From positions 1 to 12,757 of the forward strand of contig CAXBPH010000204.1 of the NCBI GenBank assembly GCA_963977445.1: DNA of 12,757 nucleotides, read 5' to 3'. Below, piece by piece: positions 1,477-12,757 of this stretch. Under the pieces are notes generated by a model, which searched no databases, was not told where the DNA came from, and saw only the letters and a program-made list of their open reading frames with translations. The number at the start of each line of letters is the position of its first letter. Within the stretch, counting starts at the first letter, position 1. The DNA is from an uncultured bacterium. GTDB lineage: Bacteria; Hydrogenedentota; Hydrogenedentia; Hydrogenedentales; JAEUWI01. Position numbers and translations under genes: made by a program.

Positions 1477-1563
1477 GGGCGAGTGGTGAAATCGGCAGAC
1501 ACGACGGACTTAAAATCCGTTTCCAGCAATGGAGTGCGGGTTCGATTCCCGCCTCGCCCACCA
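1477..1563 (+). tRNA. tRNA-Leu, anticodon TAA (UAA), 87 nt, CCA encoded
   Basis: Acceptor stem GGGCGAG/CTCGCCC. Anticodon stem ACGGA/TCCGT with loop CT-TAA-AA (anticodon 1511-1513). Long variable arm. T arm GCGGG-TTCGATT-CCCGC. Discriminator A1560 and CCA 1561-1563. Confidence 0.97.
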
Positions 1564-1571
1564 TAGTAAAT

Positions 1572-1610
1572 AAAGGCGATCCTCGATACACGGGGATCGC
1601 CTTTTTTGTT
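1572..1610 (+). terminator. Rho-independent terminator after tRNA-Leu
   Basis: 14-bp stem AAAGGCGATCCTCG (1572-1585) / CGGGGATCGCCTTT (1591-1604) with one G-U pair, loop ATACA, running into a T-tract (TTTTTTGTT, 1602-1610). Confidence 0.85.
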
Positions 1611-1642: not shown

Positions 1643-1660
1643 GGGGCGCGTCCACCGATG

Positions 1661-1690
1661 TTGTCGGTTCTGGGGTCCTGCTGGTACTAT
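1661..1690 (+). promoter_or_regulatory. Candidate sigma70 promoter (extended -10) for the nuclease array
   Basis: TTGTCG (1661-1666), 18-nt spacer, TACTAT (1685-1690) preceded by TG-n. It lies downstream of the tRNA terminator and upstream of the RBS at 1721-1726. Confidence 0.4.
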
Positions 1691-1732
1691 CTGAGCTGGC
1701 ATTCTGGACAACAACCTTCGGGGGGACATTTT

Positions 1733-1840
1733 GTGTTACTGCTTTCGCTTAAAGGGTTTCGGCGTCGTCTGAGTCTTGCCCAACATGTACTGCGTCATTG
1801 CACACCGGCCCCTCGGGTGGTCAGCGGGGTTGCTTCATGA
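1733..1840 (+). CDS. Leader micro-ORF 1 (35 aa, MLLLSLKGFRRRLSLAQHVLRHCTPAPRVVSGVAS), probable diverged homologue of the two downstream micro-ORFs
   Basis: GTG 1733 with GGGGGA 6 nt upstream. The stop TGA overlaps the next ATG (ATGA 1837-1840). Aligns without gaps over the first 21 codons to micro-ORF 3 (L4, L6, R11, L13, A16, L20, R21), then PAxRxV. Confidence 0.4.
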   Translation: MLLLSLKGFRRRLSLAQHVLRHCTPAPRVVSGVAS

Positions 1841-2760
1841 GTACACACGGTAAGACGGTACGTATTTATCTCGCCGATGGCTCGCCTACGGGCATCCGTC
1901 ACGCCGAGGTGGTCAACTGGACCGGGCAGGCCATTGTGTGTCCACGCGCACGCATTGGAGAGTTGTCGAATTGGGCGGAATCGCAGCGTCCGGGGATCTA
2001 CATCCTCTTTGGGGAAGACCCGGAGAATTCGCGTCCCTTGGCCTACATCGGTGAGGCGGAGAATGTGTTTGTCCGCCTGAAGCAGCACGCTAAGGGTGAG
2101 AAAGATTTCTGGGATCAGGCCGTCTTTTTTACGAGCAAGGACGACAATCTCACCAAGGGGCATGTCAAATACCTTGAGGCTCGTGTGGTAACCCTCGCCA
2201 CCGAGGCCAATCGATTTGCATTGGCGAACGGAGCTGCACCGACACAGTCAACATTGCCCCGCCCTGACCGAGACGCTATGGAAGAGTTTCTGGAGCCTGC
2301 ACGCATCCTCTTGGGCGCCCTCGGATTCACCTTGTTAGAGCCTGTTCGACGCAAGAAAGTTGATGAAACGAGCAACGATAGCGACGGACCGCTGTCCCAT
2401 GTCACCCTTTACCTGAACAAGCCGAAGTACGGTGTTGAAGCCGAGGGAATCTGGACGGACCAAGGTTTTGTCGTGTCAAAGGGCTCCATTGGTGCCCACA
2501 AACTCAACGGACAGCTCAGCTCAGGCTGGATCAAGCGGCGCGAAGAATTGATAGCTGAGGGATCGATAGAAGTTTTGGGAGAGCAAATTCGATTTACCAA
2601 GGATGTACTCTTCAACAGTCCTACCGCCGCTTCATGCACGGTGTCAGGCGGTGGAAGAAATGGCCGCATGTCATGGAAAGATCAACATGGTACGCCGCTG
2701 CGCGACTTGGAGAATGCTTTCTTAGGCAATGATTCCCCCGAAGACGAAGGAACCAACTAA
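1837..2760 (+). CDS. GIY-YIG nuclease family protein with C-terminal DUF4357-type domain, copy 1 (307 aa)
   Basis: GIYIL...AYIGEAE...RLKQH...YLE...NG, the GIY-YIG catalytic pattern. C-terminal FVVSKGS...DVLFNSPTAAS...GRNG..SWK is the DUF4357-type pattern. Start moved from 1798 to ATG 1837 by alignment with copies 2 and 3. Confidence 0.88.
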   Translation: MSTHGKTVRIYLADGSPTGIRHAEVVNWTGQAIVCPRARIGELSNWAESQRPGIYILFGEDPENSRPLAYIGEAENVFVRLKQHAKGEKDFWDQAVFFTSKDDNLTKGHVKYLEARVVTLATEANRFALANGAAPTQSTLPRPDRDAMEEFLEPARILLGALGFTLLEPVRRKKVDETSNDSDGPLSHVTLYLNKPKYGVEAEGIWTDQGFVVSKGSIGAHKLNGQLSSGWIKRREELIAEGSIEVLGEQIRFTKDVLFNSPTAASCTVSGGGRNGRMSWKDQHGTPLRDLENAFLGNDSPEDEGTN

Positions 2761-2763
2761 CCT

Positions 2764-2859
2764 ATGTCCCATTTGCTCCTGGCAGAACTCCAATATCATT
2801 TCTGGCGAGCGGCGTATTTTCTCCGTGGTCCCGCCGACCGCAACGTGGTGTCTCCATGA
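2764..2859 (+). CDS. Micro-ORF 2 (31 aa, MSHLLLAELQYHFWRAAYFLRGPADRNVVSP), HsdM N-terminus-like
   Basis: ATG 3 nt after the stop of copy 1. TGA overlaps the ATG of copy 2 (ATGA). 18/31 residues identical to micro-ORF 3, with the same length. Confidence 0.55.
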   Translation: MSHLLLAELQYHFWRAAYFLRGPADRNVVSP

Positions 2860-3770
2860 GTGGTCACGGAAAAGTTGTTCGTATCCTACTGGCCGATGGT
2901 TCACCGGCGGGCATCCGGCACGCAGAAATTGGAAACTGGACGGGACAAGCGATTGTTTGTCCACGCAGTCGCATTGGGGAACTGTCGGAATGGCCTGAGT
3001 CGCAGCGCCCAGGGCTCTACGTGCTCCATGGGGAAGATCCGGAGAGTTACCGACCGATGGCCTACATCGGTGAGGCGGAAAATGTGTTGGTGCGCCTGAA
3101 GCAGCATGTAAAGGAGAAGGACTTCTGGGACCAGGTCGTTTTTTTCACCAGCAAGGACGACAATCTCACCAAGGTTCACGTAAAATATTTGGAGTCGCGG
3201 GTGGTAGAACTCGCTAGCGTCGCAGAGCGCATTCGACTGGAAAATGGCAACATTCCGGTCCGCCCCATGCTTCCTCGGACAGATTTGGCGGCCACAGAAG
3301 AATTCATCGAGCTAGCACGAATTCTGCTGGGTGCCCTGGGTTTTCATTTTCTGGAAGCACTCCCGAGCCGAACGGAAGGCGAAGTGTCAATGGGACTCAA
3401 TGGACCGCTGTCACACATCACCTTGTACTTCAACATTCCCAAGCACGGTGTCAAAGCCGAGGGCATATGGACGGATGAGGGATTCATCGTCGCTGAAGGC
3501 GCAATTGGCTTGAAAGAGATTAAGGGTATCCTCAGTCCAGGTTGGGTTAAGAGGCGCATGGACCTGATTCAAGAGGGCACATTCGTTGAATCGGGCGAAC
3601 ACAGACGGTTGACCAAGGACGTACTCTTTAGTAGTCCGTCTGCCGCCACTGATATTATCAGTGGTCTTGGGAGAAATGGCCGAATAAGTTGGAAAGACAA
3701 GAACGGCACCACGTTGGCCGAGCTGGAAGAAGCCCTATTGAATACCACCGACAACGAAGGACATGTATAA
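2856..3770 (+). CDS. GIY-YIG nuclease family protein with C-terminal DUF4357-type domain, copy 2 (304 aa)
   Basis: GLYVL...AYIGEAE...RLKQH...YLE...NG; C-terminal DVLFSSPSAAT...GRNGRISWK. Paralogue of the flanking genes. Confidence 0.88.
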   Translation: MSGHGKVVRILLADGSPAGIRHAEIGNWTGQAIVCPRSRIGELSEWPESQRPGLYVLHGEDPESYRPMAYIGEAENVLVRLKQHVKEKDFWDQVVFFTSKDDNLTKVHVKYLESRVVELASVAERIRLENGNIPVRPMLPRTDLAATEEFIELARILLGALGFHFLEALPSRTEGEVSMGLNGPLSHITLYFNIPKHGVKAEGIWTDEGFIVAEGAIGLKEIKGILSPGWVKRRMDLIQEGTFVESGEHRRLTKDVLFSSPSAATDIISGLGRNGRISWKDKNGTTLAELEEALLNTTDNEGHV

Positions 3771-3773
3771 CCC

Positions 3774-3869
3774 ATGCCCCAACTGACCCTACCCGAACTT
3801 GAACGCCATCTGTGGAAGGCCGCTGACCTGCTCCGTGACCCCGCCAACCGTATCGTGGTGTCTCCATGA
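3774..3869 (+). CDS. Micro-ORF 3 (31 aa, MPQLTLPELERHLWKAADLLRDPANRIVVSP), HsdM N-terminus-like
   Basis: ATG 3 nt after the stop of copy 2, with an ATGA overlap into copy 3. LTLPELERHLWKAADLLR matches the familiar start of type I R-M methyltransferase subunits (LE.HLW.AAD.LRG). Confidence 0.65.
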   Translation: MPQLTLPELERHLWKAADLLRDPANRIVVSP

Positions 3870-4822
3870 GTGGTCACGGCAAGACGGTACGTATTTATCT
3901 CGCAGACGGCTCTCCCACCGGTATTCGGCATGTCGAGGTGGACAACTGGACCGGGCAGGCGATTGTCTGCCCCCGCGCACGGATTGGAGAGCTTTCGAGG
4001 TGGACCGAGTCCCAACGGCCTGGGCTCTACATGCTTCTGGGGGAAGACCCTGAGTTTTCCCGCCCCATGGTCTATATCGGCGAAGCCGAGAATGTGCTCA
4101 CGCGCTTGAAGCAACATGTAGCCAAGAAGGAGTTCTGGGACCAAGTGATTTTCTTCACCAGCAAGGACGACAACCTCACCAAGGCTCACGTCAAATACCT
4201 GGAATCGCGAACCGTGGAACTGGCTACCAAATCCATGCGCCGGGCACTGGACAATGGAACCGCTCCTCCGCCGTCAGCCCTCCCGCGTCCCGACCAAAAC
4301 GCCATGGAGGTGTTTTTGAATACGGTCCGCATGCTCCTCGAAACACTCGGCGTATCCCTGCTGGAGCCCATCTCCCACAGGCAGCCCGATGCTACGACTG
4401 GTCCAGCTCCTGACAACGCTCACGATAACGGAAAAGGCCCTCTTTCCAACATACCGCTATATTATCGACTCCCTCGTTTTGGTGTCGAAGCGACGGGTTA
4501 CGTAACCGACGAGGGTTTCGTAGTAGCCGAAGGTTCCATCGGCTCAAAAAAAGTCTGGCCATCGTTGAGTCCTAGCCACGAACAACTTCGTAACGACTTG
4601 CTCACGCGCGGCGATATCGAGGAATCTAGTAAGCACATTCGCTTCCCCCGCGATGTACTGTTTACCACGCCCTCTATCGCATGCAGAGTGATCTCTGGCG
4701 CCGGTGCAGGCGGTCGCACCAGTTGGAAAAATCAGCGCGGCACGACGCTACGTGACCTGGAAAACGAACTCGCAGGCGTTACGTCCGAAGCCGACACACC
4801 GGAAGAAAATGGGGACGACTAG
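3866..4822 (+). CDS. GIY-YIG nuclease family protein with C-terminal DUF4357-type domain, copy 3 (318 aa)
   Basis: GLYML...VYIGEAE...RLKQH...YLE...NG. Longer interdomain linker. C-terminal DVLFTTPSIAC...GAGGRTSWK, the most divergent of the three. Confidence 0.88.
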   Translation: MSGHGKTVRIYLADGSPTGIRHVEVDNWTGQAIVCPRARIGELSRWTESQRPGLYMLLGEDPEFSRPMVYIGEAENVLTRLKQHVAKKEFWDQVIFFTSKDDNLTKAHVKYLESRTVELATKSMRRALDNGTAPPPSALPRPDQNAMEVFLNTVRMLLETLGVSLLEPISHRQPDATTGPAPDNAHDNGKGPLSNIPLYYRLPRFGVEATGYVTDEGFVVAEGSIGSKKVWPSLSPSHEQLRNDLLTRGDIEESSKHIRFPRDVLFTTPSIACRVISGAGAGGRTSWKNQRGTTLRDLENELAGVTSEADTPEENGDD

Positions 4823-4824
4823 AC

Positions 4825-4990
4825 TTGCCACACTTATGGCGGATGTTTCCTGAGGCGAAGGCAACGTTGAAGCTGTGGAAGGTCGACCATTGAGTAGTGC
4901 AGTCGTACGGGGCATATCGGAAGTGCTTACGGTGCTGGTCCAACACGAAAAACTCTATGCGTCAGCACAGCGCCCGGGCTTGTATTTCTT
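4825..4990 (+). pseudogene. Probable eroded fourth [micro-ORF + GIY-YIG] unit
   Basis: TTG 4825..TGA 4893 gives LPHLWRMFPEAKATLKLWKVDH and shares CTGTGGAAGG with micro-ORF 3. Its stop overlaps TTG 4890 (TTGA), whose frame reads LSSAVVRGISEVL...SAQRPGLYFF. QRPGLY (4968-4985) is the motif leading into the GIY element of copies 2 and 3. Confidence 0.45.
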
Positions 4991-5117
4991 TCGGCCCGAA
5001 GGGTCAACGCAGCGTAGCCCAGGGCAACGCCCTGGGAAAATAAGGTAACGTATTTTATCGCCCTGAAGGGGCAACGCAGTTCCTCTTTCTCACTTACTGC
5101 ACTGCACTTTCAGGGCG
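4991..5117. repeat. REP/REPIN-like composite palindromic element
   Basis: Direct repeats TCGGCCCGAAGGGTCAACGCAG (4991-5012) and TCGCCCTGAAGGGGCAACGCAG (5058-5079), 19/22 identical. Perfect hairpin CCCAGGGC-AAC-GCCCTGGG (5018-5036). Inverted copy at 5097-5117 (17/21 identical to 5059-5079). Confidence 0.6.
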
Positions 5118-5167
5118 GGCTGACTGCCCCGGGATAAAGGCACGTTGTTTTTACGTCTTCGACGTAA

Positions 5168-5192
5168 TGCCGGCGGGCCGCCGGCGCTCCCA
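5168..5192 (-). repeat. Single REP-like palindrome of a second type (TGGGAGCGCCGGCGGCCCGCCGGCA on the minus strand)
   Basis: 7-bp GC stem GCCGGCG/CGCCGGC (5169-5185) with a GGAG-containing foot on the minus strand. Intergenic, between convergent genes, with no U-tract. Confidence 0.4.
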
Positions 5193-5427
5193 ATTTCCAA
5201 TTTTGGAAGCTGGCAACCGCAAGCCTTGGAAATTGTCCGAGATGAATCAGGGCTTATCTGCGTGATGCAACTCTCACCCATAAAGCCGTTCGTTTTACTC
5301 ACGTCTGTATAGGTGGCACCCAAAACGTTTCTTGAAATGACCGAAGAATGCGAGGCCAATAAAAAATTCTGGAGATGCCAAAATCAGGCGCTGTCGAATG
5401 CCTATGGATGCATTACGCACCCCGTTC

Positions 5428-9786: not shown

Positions 9787-9844
9787 GGACGAACCTACAC
9801 ATAGCCCCACCGATTAACGGTACCTTGCAGGAGGATTGAGACGA

Positions 9845-10678
9845 ATGATGCGCGCAATTGGACGATGGTTTAAATCCATTGGATATTTCTTTTCTGGCAA
9901 TATTGATGCGAACCGCCGTAATTTGGACACCAATCCCCATGTTATGGCGGCCCGCTATGACGATATCGTTCGTGATAAGACCGGCCGATTCCATCAATAT
10001 AAGCAGGCCGTGGCCGCCTTGATCGCCCAACAGGAGGGCAAGATTCATACGGCGAAGACCCTCACCGAAGAAACACGCAAGTTGGAGACCCTCAAAGCAG
10101 GTGCTCTGGCCAAGGCCAAGAAGAAGGTGGAAGAATTAAAGGGACAGGGCGTAGCCCAGGACCAGATTCGCAATAACGACGACTACATGAAGTGTCTGTC
10201 GGCCTACAACGATTTCACCTCTACGCTGACCGAGAAGAACCAGCGCATTGAAGAGCTCGAAAAGGATATCGACGACTACGGTGCCCGCATCAATGAGCAC
10301 AAGCTTCAGATGCAGGGACTCATGCGTGAGATCGACGAAATACGTGAAGAGTCGAAGGACGCCGTTGCCGATGTGATTTCCGCAAAAGAAGAAAAAGAAA
10401 TCTCTGACGCGTTGGCGGGACTTTCCCAGGATGGCAGCGATGCCGACCTCCAGGAATTGCGCAAACTCCGCACCGAGGTGAAGGCGGAAGCCCGTATCTC
10501 GAAAGAATTGAGCGGCACGAAAGAATTGGCCCTCGAACAAGAATTCCTGGCCTATGCCCAGCAATCGGAGCATAGCGATGAATTCGATGCCCTCATCGGT
10601 CTGGCAGAGTCCGCCGAAACGAGTGCCCCGGCAGCCGAAACCACCGAAGCGGAGCGCCTGCCCGGACTTCCCGAATAG
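9845..10678 (+). CDS. PspA/IM30/Vipp1-like (ESCRT-III superfamily) coiled-coil protein, 277 aa
   Basis: N-terminal amphipathic helix MRAIGRWFKSIGYFFSG, then LDTNPHVM (cf. the PspA E-D/N-P turn) and long heptad helices (YKQAVAALIAQ..., LEKDIDDY...LMREIDEIREE). Ends with LEQEF...DEFDAL and a flexible tail. ATG 9845 chosen because GGAGGA lies 9 nt upstream. Confidence 0.7.
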   Translation: MMRAIGRWFKSIGYFFSGNIDANRRNLDTNPHVMAARYDDIVRDKTGRFHQYKQAVAALIAQQEGKIHTAKTLTEETRKLETLKAGALAKAKKKVEELKGQGVAQDQIRNNDDYMKCLSAYNDFTSTLTEKNQRIEELEKDIDDYGARINEHKLQMQGLMREIDEIREESKDAVADVISAKEEKEISDALAGLSQDGSDADLQELRKLRTEVKAEARISKELSGTKELALEQEFLAYAQQSEHSDEFDALIGLAESAETSAPAAETTEAERLPGLPE

Positions 10679-10682
10679 CGTG

Positions 10683-12518
10683 ATGGAGTCAGCATCTTCC
10701 TTGGAATCACCCCACTATCCCTTCCTGCGTAAGGCGGGGCGCATCCTCAATTCGGGTCAATCCCGTACCCTCACGCTGACTGGAAATATTTACGACCTTT
10801 TTTGTCGGAAGAATGATGGGGCGGGGGAATATGTTCCGCTTATCGATTTCCTACTGGCCCACTGGTCTATCCCCAACCACATTGTTATCGTCTACGAGCT
10901 GAATGGACCCATTCGTTTTGTAAACGAAGGCGATCAGGCGCTTCTCCGCGATGCATGGCTGCGTTGGCGCACCGGGTTGAACCCCGACGACCTCGCCATA
11001 AAACGCATGCTGTCCCGTGGGAAAATCGACGCGGAAACCGCGTTGCACCAGAAGGACTTTGACCAGCAACTCCACCAGGCGATTGGTCAACCCACCGTCG
11101 CGCTGGAGCTACTGCGCCAGTTTTGCCTCTGTTCGCGCAGCGCGATAAACGGCGTGCCCCTATTGTCCCAGAATCTCATTGTCCTCGTCGAGGGGGCAGA
11201 TTTGATCCTGCCCGAGGGCGAAGTCACCCGCCTCTCTGATCGGGACCGTCATCGCCTCCATATTTGCTACGACTGGTTTTCCGACCCCGGCTTCGTCAAC
11301 GGCAATGACTCGGTCATCCTCATCGCCGAATCCCGCAGTCAACTCAACCAGCGGGTCGGGCGACTCCCCCACCTTCTCGATGTCGCCATCCCGGCTCCCG
11401 ACGAGTCGGTGCGGGCCCACTTCATTGCCACCTATCGTGCGTCCCTGGGCGACGGCCCCTCCCTCAATCTATGGGGAACCGATGCCGACCTCGCACGGGC
11501 CACGGCCGGCCTGTCCATCCATGCCCTCATGCAACTCCTGAAGGGGGCAATCCACGATGGGACCCCCCTCCGCCAGGAGCGCGTCGTAGAAAAGGTCGCC
11601 GACTACATTGCCAGTCAGTTGGGCGAAGACATGGTGGAGTTCAAACGCCCGGCCCACACCCTGGACGATGTGGTGGGCTTTGCTCGTCTTAAAGAGTTTT
11701 TGCGTGAAGAGTTTATGCCCCGGGTGTCTGCCGAAGGGGACGATGCCCTGCCCGGTGCCGCCGTGGGTGGGGCGATCGGCAGCGGGAAGACCTTCATTTT
11801 CGAAGCGGTCGCTGCGGAACTCGATATGGTCGTCCTGGTGCTGAAAAACATTCGCAGCCAGTGGTACGGTCAGACCGACGTGCTTTTTGAGCGCCTCCGC
11901 CGCGTGTTGGAAGCCCTGAACAAGGTGCTCATCTTCGTCGATGAGGCCGATACCCAGTTTGGCGGTGTCGGCGCCGAGGAACATGCTACCGAACGACGCC
12001 TCACGGGAAAAATCCAGGCCATGATGTCGGACCCACGTCTCCGGGGTCAGGTCACCTGGCTGCTCATGACCGCACGCATCCATCTGCTCTCGCCGGACAT
12101 TCGACGTCCGGGACGGGTAGGGGATCTCATCATTCCCGTGCTCGACCCGGAAGGCGACGACCGAAAGGCCTTTATTCATTGGATGGTGAAACCCGTCCTG
12201 GGCGACACGATTGACGAAGCCACCATTGCAGCCCTCACGCTGGCAACGAAGGGCTTTGCTGCGGCCAACTTCGCGGCCATGCGCTCCGAACTGAAAGCCC
12301 GCCATCGCCTCGTCGGCCACCTGAGCCTCGAAGGTGCCCTGGAAGCCATCCACGATCATCTTCCGCCGCCCATTGAAGATACGCGACGCTATCAGACCTT
12401 GCAGGCCCTGGTGAATTGTACCCGACGCAGCCTGCTGCCCGATCCCGGCGCGACCGACGAGGAACGAGCCGCCTGGGGCGATGAAATTCGTGCACTTGAG
12501 GCACGGGGAATTCGGTAA
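10683..12518 (+). CDS. Classical-clade AAA+ ATPase with a degenerate N-terminal AAA-like module (611 aa)
   Basis: TLDDVVGFARLKEFL, Walker A GAIGSGKT, pore loop RSQWYGQ, Walker B LIFVDEAD, SRH with RRPGR. The N-terminal half has remnants TLTGNIYD and IVLVEGAD. Start at ATG 10683 (or GTG 10680), 4 nt after the upstream stop; the track start at 10554 overlaps the previous gene. Confidence 0.9.
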   Translation: MESASSLESPHYPFLRKAGRILNSGQSRTLTLTGNIYDLFCRKNDGAGEYVPLIDFLLAHWSIPNHIVIVYELNGPIRFVNEGDQALLRDAWLRWRTGLNPDDLAIKRMLSRGKIDAETALHQKDFDQQLHQAIGQPTVALELLRQFCLCSRSAINGVPLLSQNLIVLVEGADLILPEGEVTRLSDRDRHRLHICYDWFSDPGFVNGNDSVILIAESRSQLNQRVGRLPHLLDVAIPAPDESVRAHFIATYRASLGDGPSLNLWGTDADLARATAGLSIHALMQLLKGAIHDGTPLRQERVVEKVADYIASQLGEDMVEFKRPAHTLDDVVGFARLKEFLREEFMPRVSAEGDDALPGAAVGGAIGSGKTFIFEAVAAELDMVVLVLKNIRSQWYGQTDVLFERLRRVLEALNKVLIFVDEADTQFGGVGAEEHATERRLTGKIQAMMSDPRLRGQVTWLLMTARIHLLSPDIRRPGRVGDLIIPVLDPEGDDRKAFIHWMVKPVLGDTIDEATIAALTLATKGFAAANFAAMRSELKARHRLVGHLSLEGALEAIHDHLPPPIEDTRRYQTLQALVNCTRRSLLPDPGATDEERAAWGDEIRALEARGIR

Positions 12519-12647
12519 CACGTAGCTGCACCCCGAACACAGATTCTCTCGATAACTGGCCCCCACCAACAAGTTGTGCTACCGAAAAGCTGCCCTGCAT
12601 TCTGCAGACCTTCACAGGGCAATCGCATTAAAATGGTTCAGGGGGAA

Positions 12648-12757
12648 TTAATGGGTGCCAAGAGAGACTCGCTCCGCCAAAACAAACTGAACCCACCAAT
12701 CGAGCCGCGCGATCCGGTATTTCCGGTCGAAGATGCGCCGTAGGAGGATTCGTGCGC
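12648..12757 (-). CDS. Possible 3' end of a convergent gene entering from the right edge (...ARILLRRIFDRKYRIARLDWWVQFVLAERVSLGTH*)
   Basis: Open minus-strand frame from the window edge to TAA at 12648-12650 with protein-like composition. Too short to assign, and the other two minus frames are also open here. Confidence 0.3.
   Translation of the reverse strand, partial: ARILLRRIFDRKYRIARLDWWVQFVLAERVSLGTH

Follow-up and report, generated by a model that had tools for sequence, protein, structure and literature searches.

RAMA domains have been proposed as discriminators of adenine methylation in restriction-modification (R-M) contexts, according to the accessible text of Iyer, Zhang and Aravind (2016, PMC4738411). 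Among tested enzymes, CMoRE / PD-T4-3 is presented in the part of its description available as a single-protein GIY-YIG type IV restriction endonuclease for DNA carrying 5-hydroxymethylcytosine (5hmC) or its glucosylated form, 5ghmC (PMC12923530; PDB 9u75). The PADLOC family PDC-S14 comes from a set of candidates which, in the accessible portion of the source preprint, were chosen by their embedding in R-M, BREX or DISARM loci (10.1101/2024.01.29.577857). Here, we describe a PDC-S14 locus in an uncultured bacterium of the phylum Hydrogenedentota. The window analyzed spans the full length of contig G000:C204 (12,757 bp), which belongs to a 7.1-Mb metagenome-assembled genome, and it carries three intact, co-oriented genes in tandem on the plus strand, the first of which starts 273 bp past a tRNA-Leu(taa). 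Our reading, to which we assign a probability of roughly 0.6, is that these three tandem genes are old paralogues, all belonging to this one known candidate defence family. We are confident in the identity and origin of the array as set out below.

The three genes are copy 1 (P0001, 307 aa; 1837..2760), copy 2 (P0002, 304 aa; 2856..3770) and copy 3 (P0003, 318 aa; 3866..4822), the last with an 8-residue insertion in its linker. The repeat unit measures 1010-1019 bp, two 95-bp spacers included. An earlier account made from the letters alone (the sequence-only reading) had described three intact tandem paralogues after the tRNA, and this description stands; the start that it gave, 1733, coincides with no feature boundary. 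For copy 1, the ATG at 1837 gives an N-terminus in line with copies 2 and 3 and with the rest of the family, and the TTG at 1798 offered by the open reading frame (ORF) list does not.

The PADLOC PDC-S14 hidden Markov model (HMM), PDLC04923, matches copies 1 to 3 at E 2e-105, 1.9e-99 and 2.4e-100, spanning approximately residues 1-295 of each copy and profile positions 21-313 of 320, so the defence candidacy that the sequence-only reading proposed to check with PADLOC is upheld for all three. The Pfam family DUF4357 (PF14267) scores 56.6, 60.5 and 46.8 bits (E 2e-15, 2e-16 and 3e-12) against a gathering cut-off of 38.4, and it matches 119/119 family members. In NCBI records, the name given to these proteins is 'GIY-YIG nuclease family protein'. 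Copy 1 was modelled with AlphaFold from a 119-sequence alignment (pLDDT 92.7, pTM 0.85), and this model was used for domain-level fold comparison with VIA-align. Residues 23-133 resemble GIY-YIG domains (2lwf: Z 8.1, 95 residues aligned, rmsd 2.8; UvrC 1ycz: Z 6.2), with further matches to T4 EndoII (Z 5.0), I-TevI (Z 4.5), Eco29kI (Z 4.3), PD-T4-3 (9u75, Z 4.1) and Slx1. Residues 184-299 resemble mouse MPND (7ydt: Z 8.0, 72 residues aligned, 25% identity), a structure which we take to cover the RAMA domain of MPND, with further likeness to SAND domains and to the C-terminal domain of CcrM (6pbd, Z 7.0). The stretch between the two regions comprises a long helix (142-161) and a linker modelled at low confidence. 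The predicted structure is thus an N-terminal GIY-YIG fold followed by a C-terminal RAMA/SAND-like fold, the latter being the Pfam DUF4357 region. Foldseek gave UvrC GIY-YIG at probability 0.89-0.96; the whole copy 1 model found no Foldseek match at E <= 0.001, a PDB sequence search returned a sole match at E 0.45, and no NCBIfam score came near any cut-off.

All copies retain G53, Y55, Y70, G72, E75, R80, H84, E114 and N131, which are invariant or nearly so among 116 other members. The GIY-YIG motif residues within this set, G53-[IL]-Y55, Y70-I-G72, R80, E114 and N131, are kept in 114-116 of those 116; they were assigned to the canonical positions by motif order. These results agree with the sequence-only reading on three points: the catalytic residues, the GIY-YIG/DUF4357 identity and the RAMA-type C-terminal domain. 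Its further proposal that the RAMA domain reads modified DNA holds as far as the likeness to RAMA is concerned, while the reading role itself is still a proposal from the literature.

The origin of the array is recorded in its spacers. They are equal in length and homologous to one another (68% nucleotide identity over 95 bp), and both are also homologous to DNA 3' of the single PDC-S14 genes in two congeners, G006 and G008. Each holds a 31-codon stub of an hsdM 5' end: P0121 in spacer 1 (2764..2859, plus strand), whose TGA overlaps the ATG of copy 2 as ATGA, and P0122 in spacer 2 (3774..3869, plus strand), whose TGA overlaps the ATG of copy 3. Both translations begin with an HsdM-like N-terminus and change at the same codon (~22) to a common tail ending in VVSP and a stop; this tail is homologous to the ~25 bp preceding the start codon of copy 1. 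In tblastn, the HsdM_N protein of G006 matches spacer 2 at 90% identity over residues 1-21 (E 2e-7) and spacer 1 at 56% identity over residues 1-25 (E 8e-4). The gene for this protein (Pfam HsdM_N, residues 9-132, E 4e-25) follows the PDC-S14 gene of G006 directly, and its first residues are nearly those of spacer 2. This G006 hsdM is cut short and carries a fused YgjP-like domain, and in G008 the hsdM at the matching position after PDC-S14 has decayed to a stub of ~45 codons; together these point to decay of the R-M partner across the genus. Another related locus (L013) keeps the order hsdR, PDC-S14, hsdM, hsdS.

The identical break point and length of the two spacers indicate that the junction formed once and was then copied, and the shared junction implies that, within an ancestral type I R-M operon, a PDC-S14 gene stood immediately 5' of hsdM. 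These comparisons indicate that the array grew by unequal crossing-over from such a gene. The sequence of events was as follows: the ancestral nuclease gene lay directly 5' of hsdM in the operon; one illegitimate junction fused hsdM codon ~22 to a point ~25 bp before the nuclease start codon; unequal crossing-over duplicated this junction, giving gene-stub-gene-stub-gene; and the R-M genes were lost later, with the array now residing in a variable slot beside tRNA-Leu(taa). No hsdM remnant was detected by tblastn 3' of copy 3. The genome has one complete hsdM, on contig C89, and because its N-terminus is unlike the stubs, it is not the old partner. That gene lies next to an HsdS-like ORF and several defence-like unannotated ORFs (L176 2558-8512). 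The sequence-only reading had described the array as standing alone without a cognate methyltransferase. This is true of the window as it is now, but the spacers are hsdM stubs and place the ancestor in a type I R-M operon.

The ATGA overlaps bridge the copies, with no terminator called from one to the next, and for these reasons the three genes are probably co-transcribed and translationally coupled through the small ORFs (sORFs) of the stubs. No sigma-70-type promoter was called on the plus strand upstream of 3157, hence none before copy 1; promoters of this phylum may differ from that type. The 181-bp leader 5' of copy 1 (1656..1836, plus strand) gave no Rfam match as a structured RNA, and the fold of 1656-1850 is weaker than that of shuffled sequences (z +2.08).

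Amino-acid identity is 65% between copies 1 and 2, 61% between copies 1 and 3 and 59% between copies 2 and 3, and DNA identity among the copies is 68-76%. Synonymous sites are saturated (proportion of differences, pS, 0.73-0.80) and nonsynonymous sites are much less diverged (pN 0.22-0.29). Where it could be computed by the Nei-Gojobori method, dN/dS is 0.06-0.21; over most regions, saturation or the lack of a defined dS value prevents this ratio from revealing positive selection. At 106 columns that are >=90% conserved in the 116 other members, copies 1, 2 and 3 deviate at 3, 6 and 4, and every deviation is conservative. The changes that had been pointed out in copy 3 are real: S261T falls in a column that is S in 116/116 other members, and R274A, N275G, G230S and W231H fall in columns that vary within the family. 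The copies are, to judge from these patterns, old, intact and constrained genes under purifying selection, and their intactness despite saturated synonymous sites suggests that they are not redundant. The likeliest difference between them would lie in the targets that they prefer, as determined by linker and RAMA domain.

The family tree also bears on the age of the copies. In a careful tree of 32 members, the copies fall inside a six-member clade (94/96) with P0004 (from congener G005), P0005 and P0037, and copy 3 is sister to P0037, a protein from another source with which it is 69% identical (support 100/100). Forcing the three copies into one monophyletic group costs 63 log-likelihood units (approximately unbiased test, p 9e-15), and a quick 119-row tree concurs. 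Taken with the shared junction, this means that either the duplications predate the split between copy 3 and P0037 or P0037 was exported from an array. Trees built from the N-half and the C-half show no supported conflict that would indicate half-swapping or gene conversion among the copies: copy 3 and P0037 pair in both (support 86 and 99), and monophyly of the three copies is not rejected by the N-half (p 0.28) and is rejected by the C-half (p 0.008). Elsewhere in the family, the N-half tree joins P0014 and P0028 as sisters (97), but the full-length and C-half trees set them far apart, a placement that hints at recombination between halves.

We consider it somewhat more probable than even that the copies act as defence nucleases. 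Each protein would be a self-contained DNA endonuclease in which the RAMA domain picks the DNA, possibly by a modified base or some other sign of foreign origin, and the GIY-YIG domain cuts it. Like other GIY-YIG restriction enzymes, the nuclease may work as an oligomer, one GIY-YIG site being insufficient by itself for a double-strand break; heteromers formed by different copies would alter this picture. Most relatives, like the array, have no adjacent methyltransferase, which makes self-protection by a cognate methylase unlikely and favours reliance on a foreign-DNA mark, in a type IV-like manner, or some other control. Dependence on such a mark would make the copies type IV-like enzymes, as CMoRE/PD-T4-3 is. 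That the three copies differ in specificity is a tentative suggestion, and we rate it as doubtful. More speculative still is a repertoire of readers at the level of genes: three co-expressed nucleases with one catalytic chassis, their linker/RAMA modules set on different DNA marks or sequences, made from one transcript by way of the recycled hsdM stub sORFs.

Multiplication of the putative reader is seen elsewhere in the family in another form. In a profile search of 1.84 billion representatives, 10,070 clusters passed E <= 1e-3 and 1,966 of these passed E <= 1e-30, and 17 of the best 150 profile matches contain several matched stretches. Fourteen long members of this kind were aligned, and 12 of them consist of one full unit plus 1-3 extra C-terminal domains only; Pfam finds 3-6 DUF4357 modules in 4/5 long members scanned. 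P0129, P0143, P0221 and P0175 (560-1207 aa) each string 3-6 DUF4357/RAMA modules behind one GIY-YIG within the same chain, and the accessible literature yielded no description of this multi-reader architecture. On these alignments, the PDC-S14 family multiplies its putative reader module repeatedly, and the locus in the window has multiplied the whole gene. If the gene-level repertoire is true, it would be the multi-gene counterpart of these single proteins with 3-6 RAMA modules behind one GIY-YIG, and a single-gene restriction-like system would have broadened its targets by tandem duplication after decay of its parent R-M system.

Several observations weigh against our reading. The Pfam GIY-YIG model (PF01541) scores 13.3-15.9 bits in the copies, below its cut-off of 22.6 in all three, and reaches E <= 0.01 in only 30/119 family members; it is the fold and the motifs, and not this HMM, that place the copies among GIY-YIG nucleases. 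The Pfam RAMA model (PF18755; cut-off 35.2) gives 13.9 bits for copy 1, 12.3 bits for copy 3 and no match at E <= 1 for copy 2, and in the family it reaches E <= 0.01 in only 35/119 members, at best 1.9e-5. PDC-S14 is one of 145 predicted phage defence candidates in the accessible part of its preprint, the main text of which, as far as available, does not contain 'PDC-S', 'GIY-YIG', 'DUF4357' or 'tandem' (10.1101/2024.01.29.577857), and a test of any PDC-S14 member was not found in the accessible literature on PDC-S14 and DUF4357. The available text of Helbrecht et al. 2024 (PMC11037411) calls GIY-YIG-RAMA fusions uncharacterised and cites a study in which the preference of RAMA for N6-methyladenine (6mA) in MPND could not be confirmed. 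The open frames of the two stubs could be due to chance, at an estimated ~0.2 each for 31 random codons. At the tRNA, the 3' 25-mer occurs once in the window (<=3 mismatches), leaving no tRNA-derived direct repeat at the array border, and the window holds no integrase, no attachment (att) repeat and no further defence gene. In a Pfam scan of neighbours at 38 related loci (the two nearest ORFs each side; 122 of 268 neighbour ORFs), most loci had housekeeping or unassigned neighbours, and most relatives do not stand beside recognised defence genes.

A further point concerns divergence between domains. Identity between copies is 79-81% over residues 1-125, as against 40-54% in the linker and 49-59% in the C-terminal 100 residues, so the ~80% N-terminal identity and the greater divergence downstream reported in the sequence-only reading are correct. 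Its use of this pattern as a sign that the array had diversified does not survive comparison with the family. Across 393 non-array pairs whose N-half identity is 0.77-0.83, the median C-domain identity is 0.57 (5-95%: 0.44-0.70), and the array pairs, at 0.59, 0.50 and 0.50, lie inside this range. The gradient from a conserved N-half to a diverged C-domain is, on these alignments, family-wide and gives no specific support for new specificities; it is compatible with a fast-evolving recognition module and does not show a special diversification of the array. Only the linker lies in the low tail, where family pairs as low as the array pairs or lower make up fractions of 0.10, 0.06 and 0.00, and its unusual divergence is partly due to the 8-residue insertion in copy 3. 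Since the divergence pattern is ordinary for the family, the key functional claim of the sequence-only reading is weakened.

These results bear directly on whether the copies are simply redundant duplicates that serve one function against one set of targets and were kept for dosage or by chance, with divergence that amounts to normal family drift. The ordinary C-domain identities, the absence of measurable positive selection with dS saturated and the half-trees, which give no sign of directed reshuffling, speak for this explanation. Redundant copies rarely last so long, however: all ORFs are intact at a pS of 0.73-0.80, with no more than 3-6 conservative deviations per 106 columns. The lineage of copy 3 also exists outside this genome. 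A second copy was found at 0/160 related loci, indicating that simple duplication for dosage is no habit of the family. We regard redundancy as unlikely, if deserving of real weight; were the copies redundant or inactive, the locus would be an ordinary duplicated passenger gene.

The 160 loci comprise 80 genome loci from other species, with up to 10 kb of flank on each side, and 80 metagenome loci, 63 of which have >=1 kb of room on one side. The tandem multi-copy loci that the sequence-only reading had proposed to look for in relatives were found neither here nor in the 4 other carrier genomes of the phylum. HsdM- or HsdR-like genes were detected by tblastn in the fetched flanks of 12/80 genome and 13/80 metagenome loci, and this association is a lower bound, as many contigs are short. 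At the 38 loci scanned with Pfam, type I components occur at 6, ResIII-only helicases at 2 and AAA_15/AAA_21 ATPases at 2. A published description of tandem PDC-S14/DUF4357 arrays was not found in the accessible literature on DUF4357, PDC-S14 and GIY-YIG with RAMA.

This distribution is relevant to a further alternative, in which the copies are orphaned accessories of a type I R-M system and need a methyltransferase or restriction complex that now acts in trans or has been lost. In variants of this explanation, the protein is a back-up nuclease freed when R-M is blocked, or one that methylation bars from attacking the host's own DNA. In its favour, the ancestor lay directly upstream of hsdM, the family is defined by embedding in R-M, BREX or DISARM loci, and HsdM/HsdR-like genes stand near 25/160 loci, with a complete hsdM available on C89. 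Against this, no HsdM or HsdR was detected in the fetched flanks of the other 135/160 loci (the association being, again, a lower bound), the copies stayed intact after the local R-M genes were lost, and the C89 HsdM, with its different N-terminus, is not the old partner. We consider this explanation, variants included, improbable.

The copies could also be selfish mobile nuclease genes, comparable to homing endonucleases and unconnected with host defence, that propagate and duplicate to their own benefit. The distribution of the family is patchy. In the genus, one copy each occurs in 3/8 other species, at loci that have no flanking DNA in common with the window, and in the phylum, 5/135 genomes carry it (G000 included), with more than one copy only in G000. 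The layout of GIY-YIG, linker and DNA-binding domain is I-TevI-like (fold Z 4.5), relatives occur in 130/72,556 plasmid records, and a 272-bp remnant of the cassette lies on an integrase-bearing tRNA-Pro island of the same genome. However, defence genes are just as typically patchy and plasmid-borne, relatives occur in just 3/50,697 phage records, no intron, intein or repeated target-site context was seen, and the junctions are hsdM stubs from unequal recombination and not homing footprints. We consider this explanation very improbable. Plasmid pHRM2a, which has two family matches, was considered as a second array and set aside, as it carries a 5.7-kb segmental duplication with one truncated copy and not an array of paralogues. 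Finally, inflation of a single gene to three by the assembly has a negligible probability, and the sequence-only reading had called it unlikely: the copies are only 68-76% identical in DNA, have distinct lengths, with an 8-codon insertion in copy 3, and database records place each protein on two contigs, of which the larger measures 128,610 bp.

The old, constrained array of PDC-S14 paralogues that we favour lies in a slot with changing contents. The slot is anchored by the tRNA-Leu (anticodon taa; 1477..1563, plus strand; ARAGORN; Rfam RF00005, 62 bits), which is followed by a strong terminator-like hairpin at 1572..1604 on the plus strand (inverted repeat I2; 14-bp stem with 8 GC pairs, then a T-run). 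Homology of the window to the tRNA flanks of congeners stops at or before 1644, and the left edge of the cassette lies within 1644-1656. The cargo after this tRNA differs in 5/5 congeners examined, and in none of these slots is it PDC-S14. In G003 it is an RHS-repeat protein with DUF5958; in G004, a DRT-class reverse transcriptase (PADLOC RT_UG36, E 3e-161; L090 8244-10933, G004:C16); in G005, an HSDR_N-domain protein; in G006, a PDC-S45 trypsin-like protease; and in G008, a 9.3-kb island (L092, G008:C1:1652500-1665000) with an integrase, a D5_N primase, a small terminase, portal and capsid genes and a partial tRNA repeat. The G008 island looks like a phage satellite or prophage remnant. Upstream of the reverse transcriptase in the G004 slot is a 321-aa ORF with no Pfam or PADLOC match. 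Thus, the slot beside tRNA-Leu(taa) is variable and partly defence-laden. The sequence-only reading had invoked tRNA 3' ends as island hotspots; the variable slot agrees with this, but the integrase and tRNA direct repeat that would mark an island at the array are missing, and no long direct or inverted repeats flank it.

The remnant mentioned above corresponds to window positions 1656-1928, that is, the leader and first 31 codons, at 81% identity, and is located on G000:C136 (L004 1321-1592). It indicates a left edge of the cassette at ~1650 and that the gene has travelled with integrative elements in this genome. C136 thus bears another mobile defence locus of this genome, and the order there (L174 3884-10890) is tRNA-Pro(cgg), a tyrosine integrase, a Prim-Pol gene, a small helix-turn-helix ORF, the remnant and a Type ISP/IIG restriction-methylase gene; the last is convergent, with its 3' end 15 bp from the remnant. 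In G008 (L009 11372-13267), the PDC-S14 gene and its decayed hsdM stub are followed by a PDC-M25 A+B pair (E 2e-122 and 1e-67), and PDC-S14 and this pair share one small defence cluster.

The remaining genes of the window are housekeeping-like, encoding a sulfotransferase, a ceramidase-like membrane protein, a DUF6807 protein, an alpha/beta hydrolase, a GFO/IDH/MocA oxidoreductase and an AAA ATPase. PADLOC matched none of them, and no methyltransferase or integrase is present among the ORFs of the window. A 280-aa ORF at 9836-10678, which has no Pfam match, overlaps the start of the 654-aa AAA ATPase ORF (10554-12518) by 125 bp, and the pair is kept in all five congeners searched at 73-74% DNA identity. 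Short interspersed repeats occupy 4980-5255, just past copy 3, and 12630-12727. One element of ~136 nt (~5113-5248) has 46 matches within its own genome, and elements of ~95 nt (~4985-5081 and 12630-12727) are present in dozens of copies in congeners, often as inverted pairs. They look like elements of the repetitive extragenic palindromic (REP) type or miniature inverted-repeat transposable elements (MITEs).

The locus is useful beyond its own genome in two respects. PDC-S14 is a large candidate family whose RAMA domain has no settled function, and the locus supplies a panel for learning what RAMA recognises, in the form of three natural variants whose catalytic chassis is the same and whose linkers and RAMA domains differ by degrees. 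The hsdM stubs are a rare datable record of a restriction-operon gene that outlived its operon and expanded by unequal crossing-over.

Compared with systems described to date, the proteins have the two-domain architecture of the URI(GIY-YIG)-RAMA fusions in the accessible parts of PMC4738411 and PMC11037411, which give the architecture only and leave tandem arrays unmentioned. They have the catalytic fold of Eco29kI (PDB 3mx4, Z 4.3) and I-TevI (1ln0, Z 4.5) and resemble I-TevI in the modular succession of catalytic domain, linker and DNA-binding domain; they differ from both in having no adjacent cognate methyltransferase, no intron or phage context and a RAMA-like C-terminal domain. CMoRE/PD-T4-3 is the closest tested analogue in layout, and the GIY-YIG domains superpose (Z 4.1), whereas the sensing domain differs, with only model residues 38-133 aligned. 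Membership in the PD-T4-3 family itself was considered and rejected, the three copies having no PADLOC PD-T4-3 match at E <= 1. With PADLOC PDC-S14 (Payne et al. 2024 preprint), the locus has in common a full-length HMM match and an ancestral hsdM neighbour that fits the rule of guilt by embedding; unlike that single-gene candidate, it consists of three diverged tandem copies, and its R-M genes are gone. The proteins are thus new members of a catalogued candidate family with an architecture described years ago, and what is new is the rare triple array, its recycled hsdM-start junctions, which may act as coupling sORFs, and the parallel with the multi-RAMA proteins.

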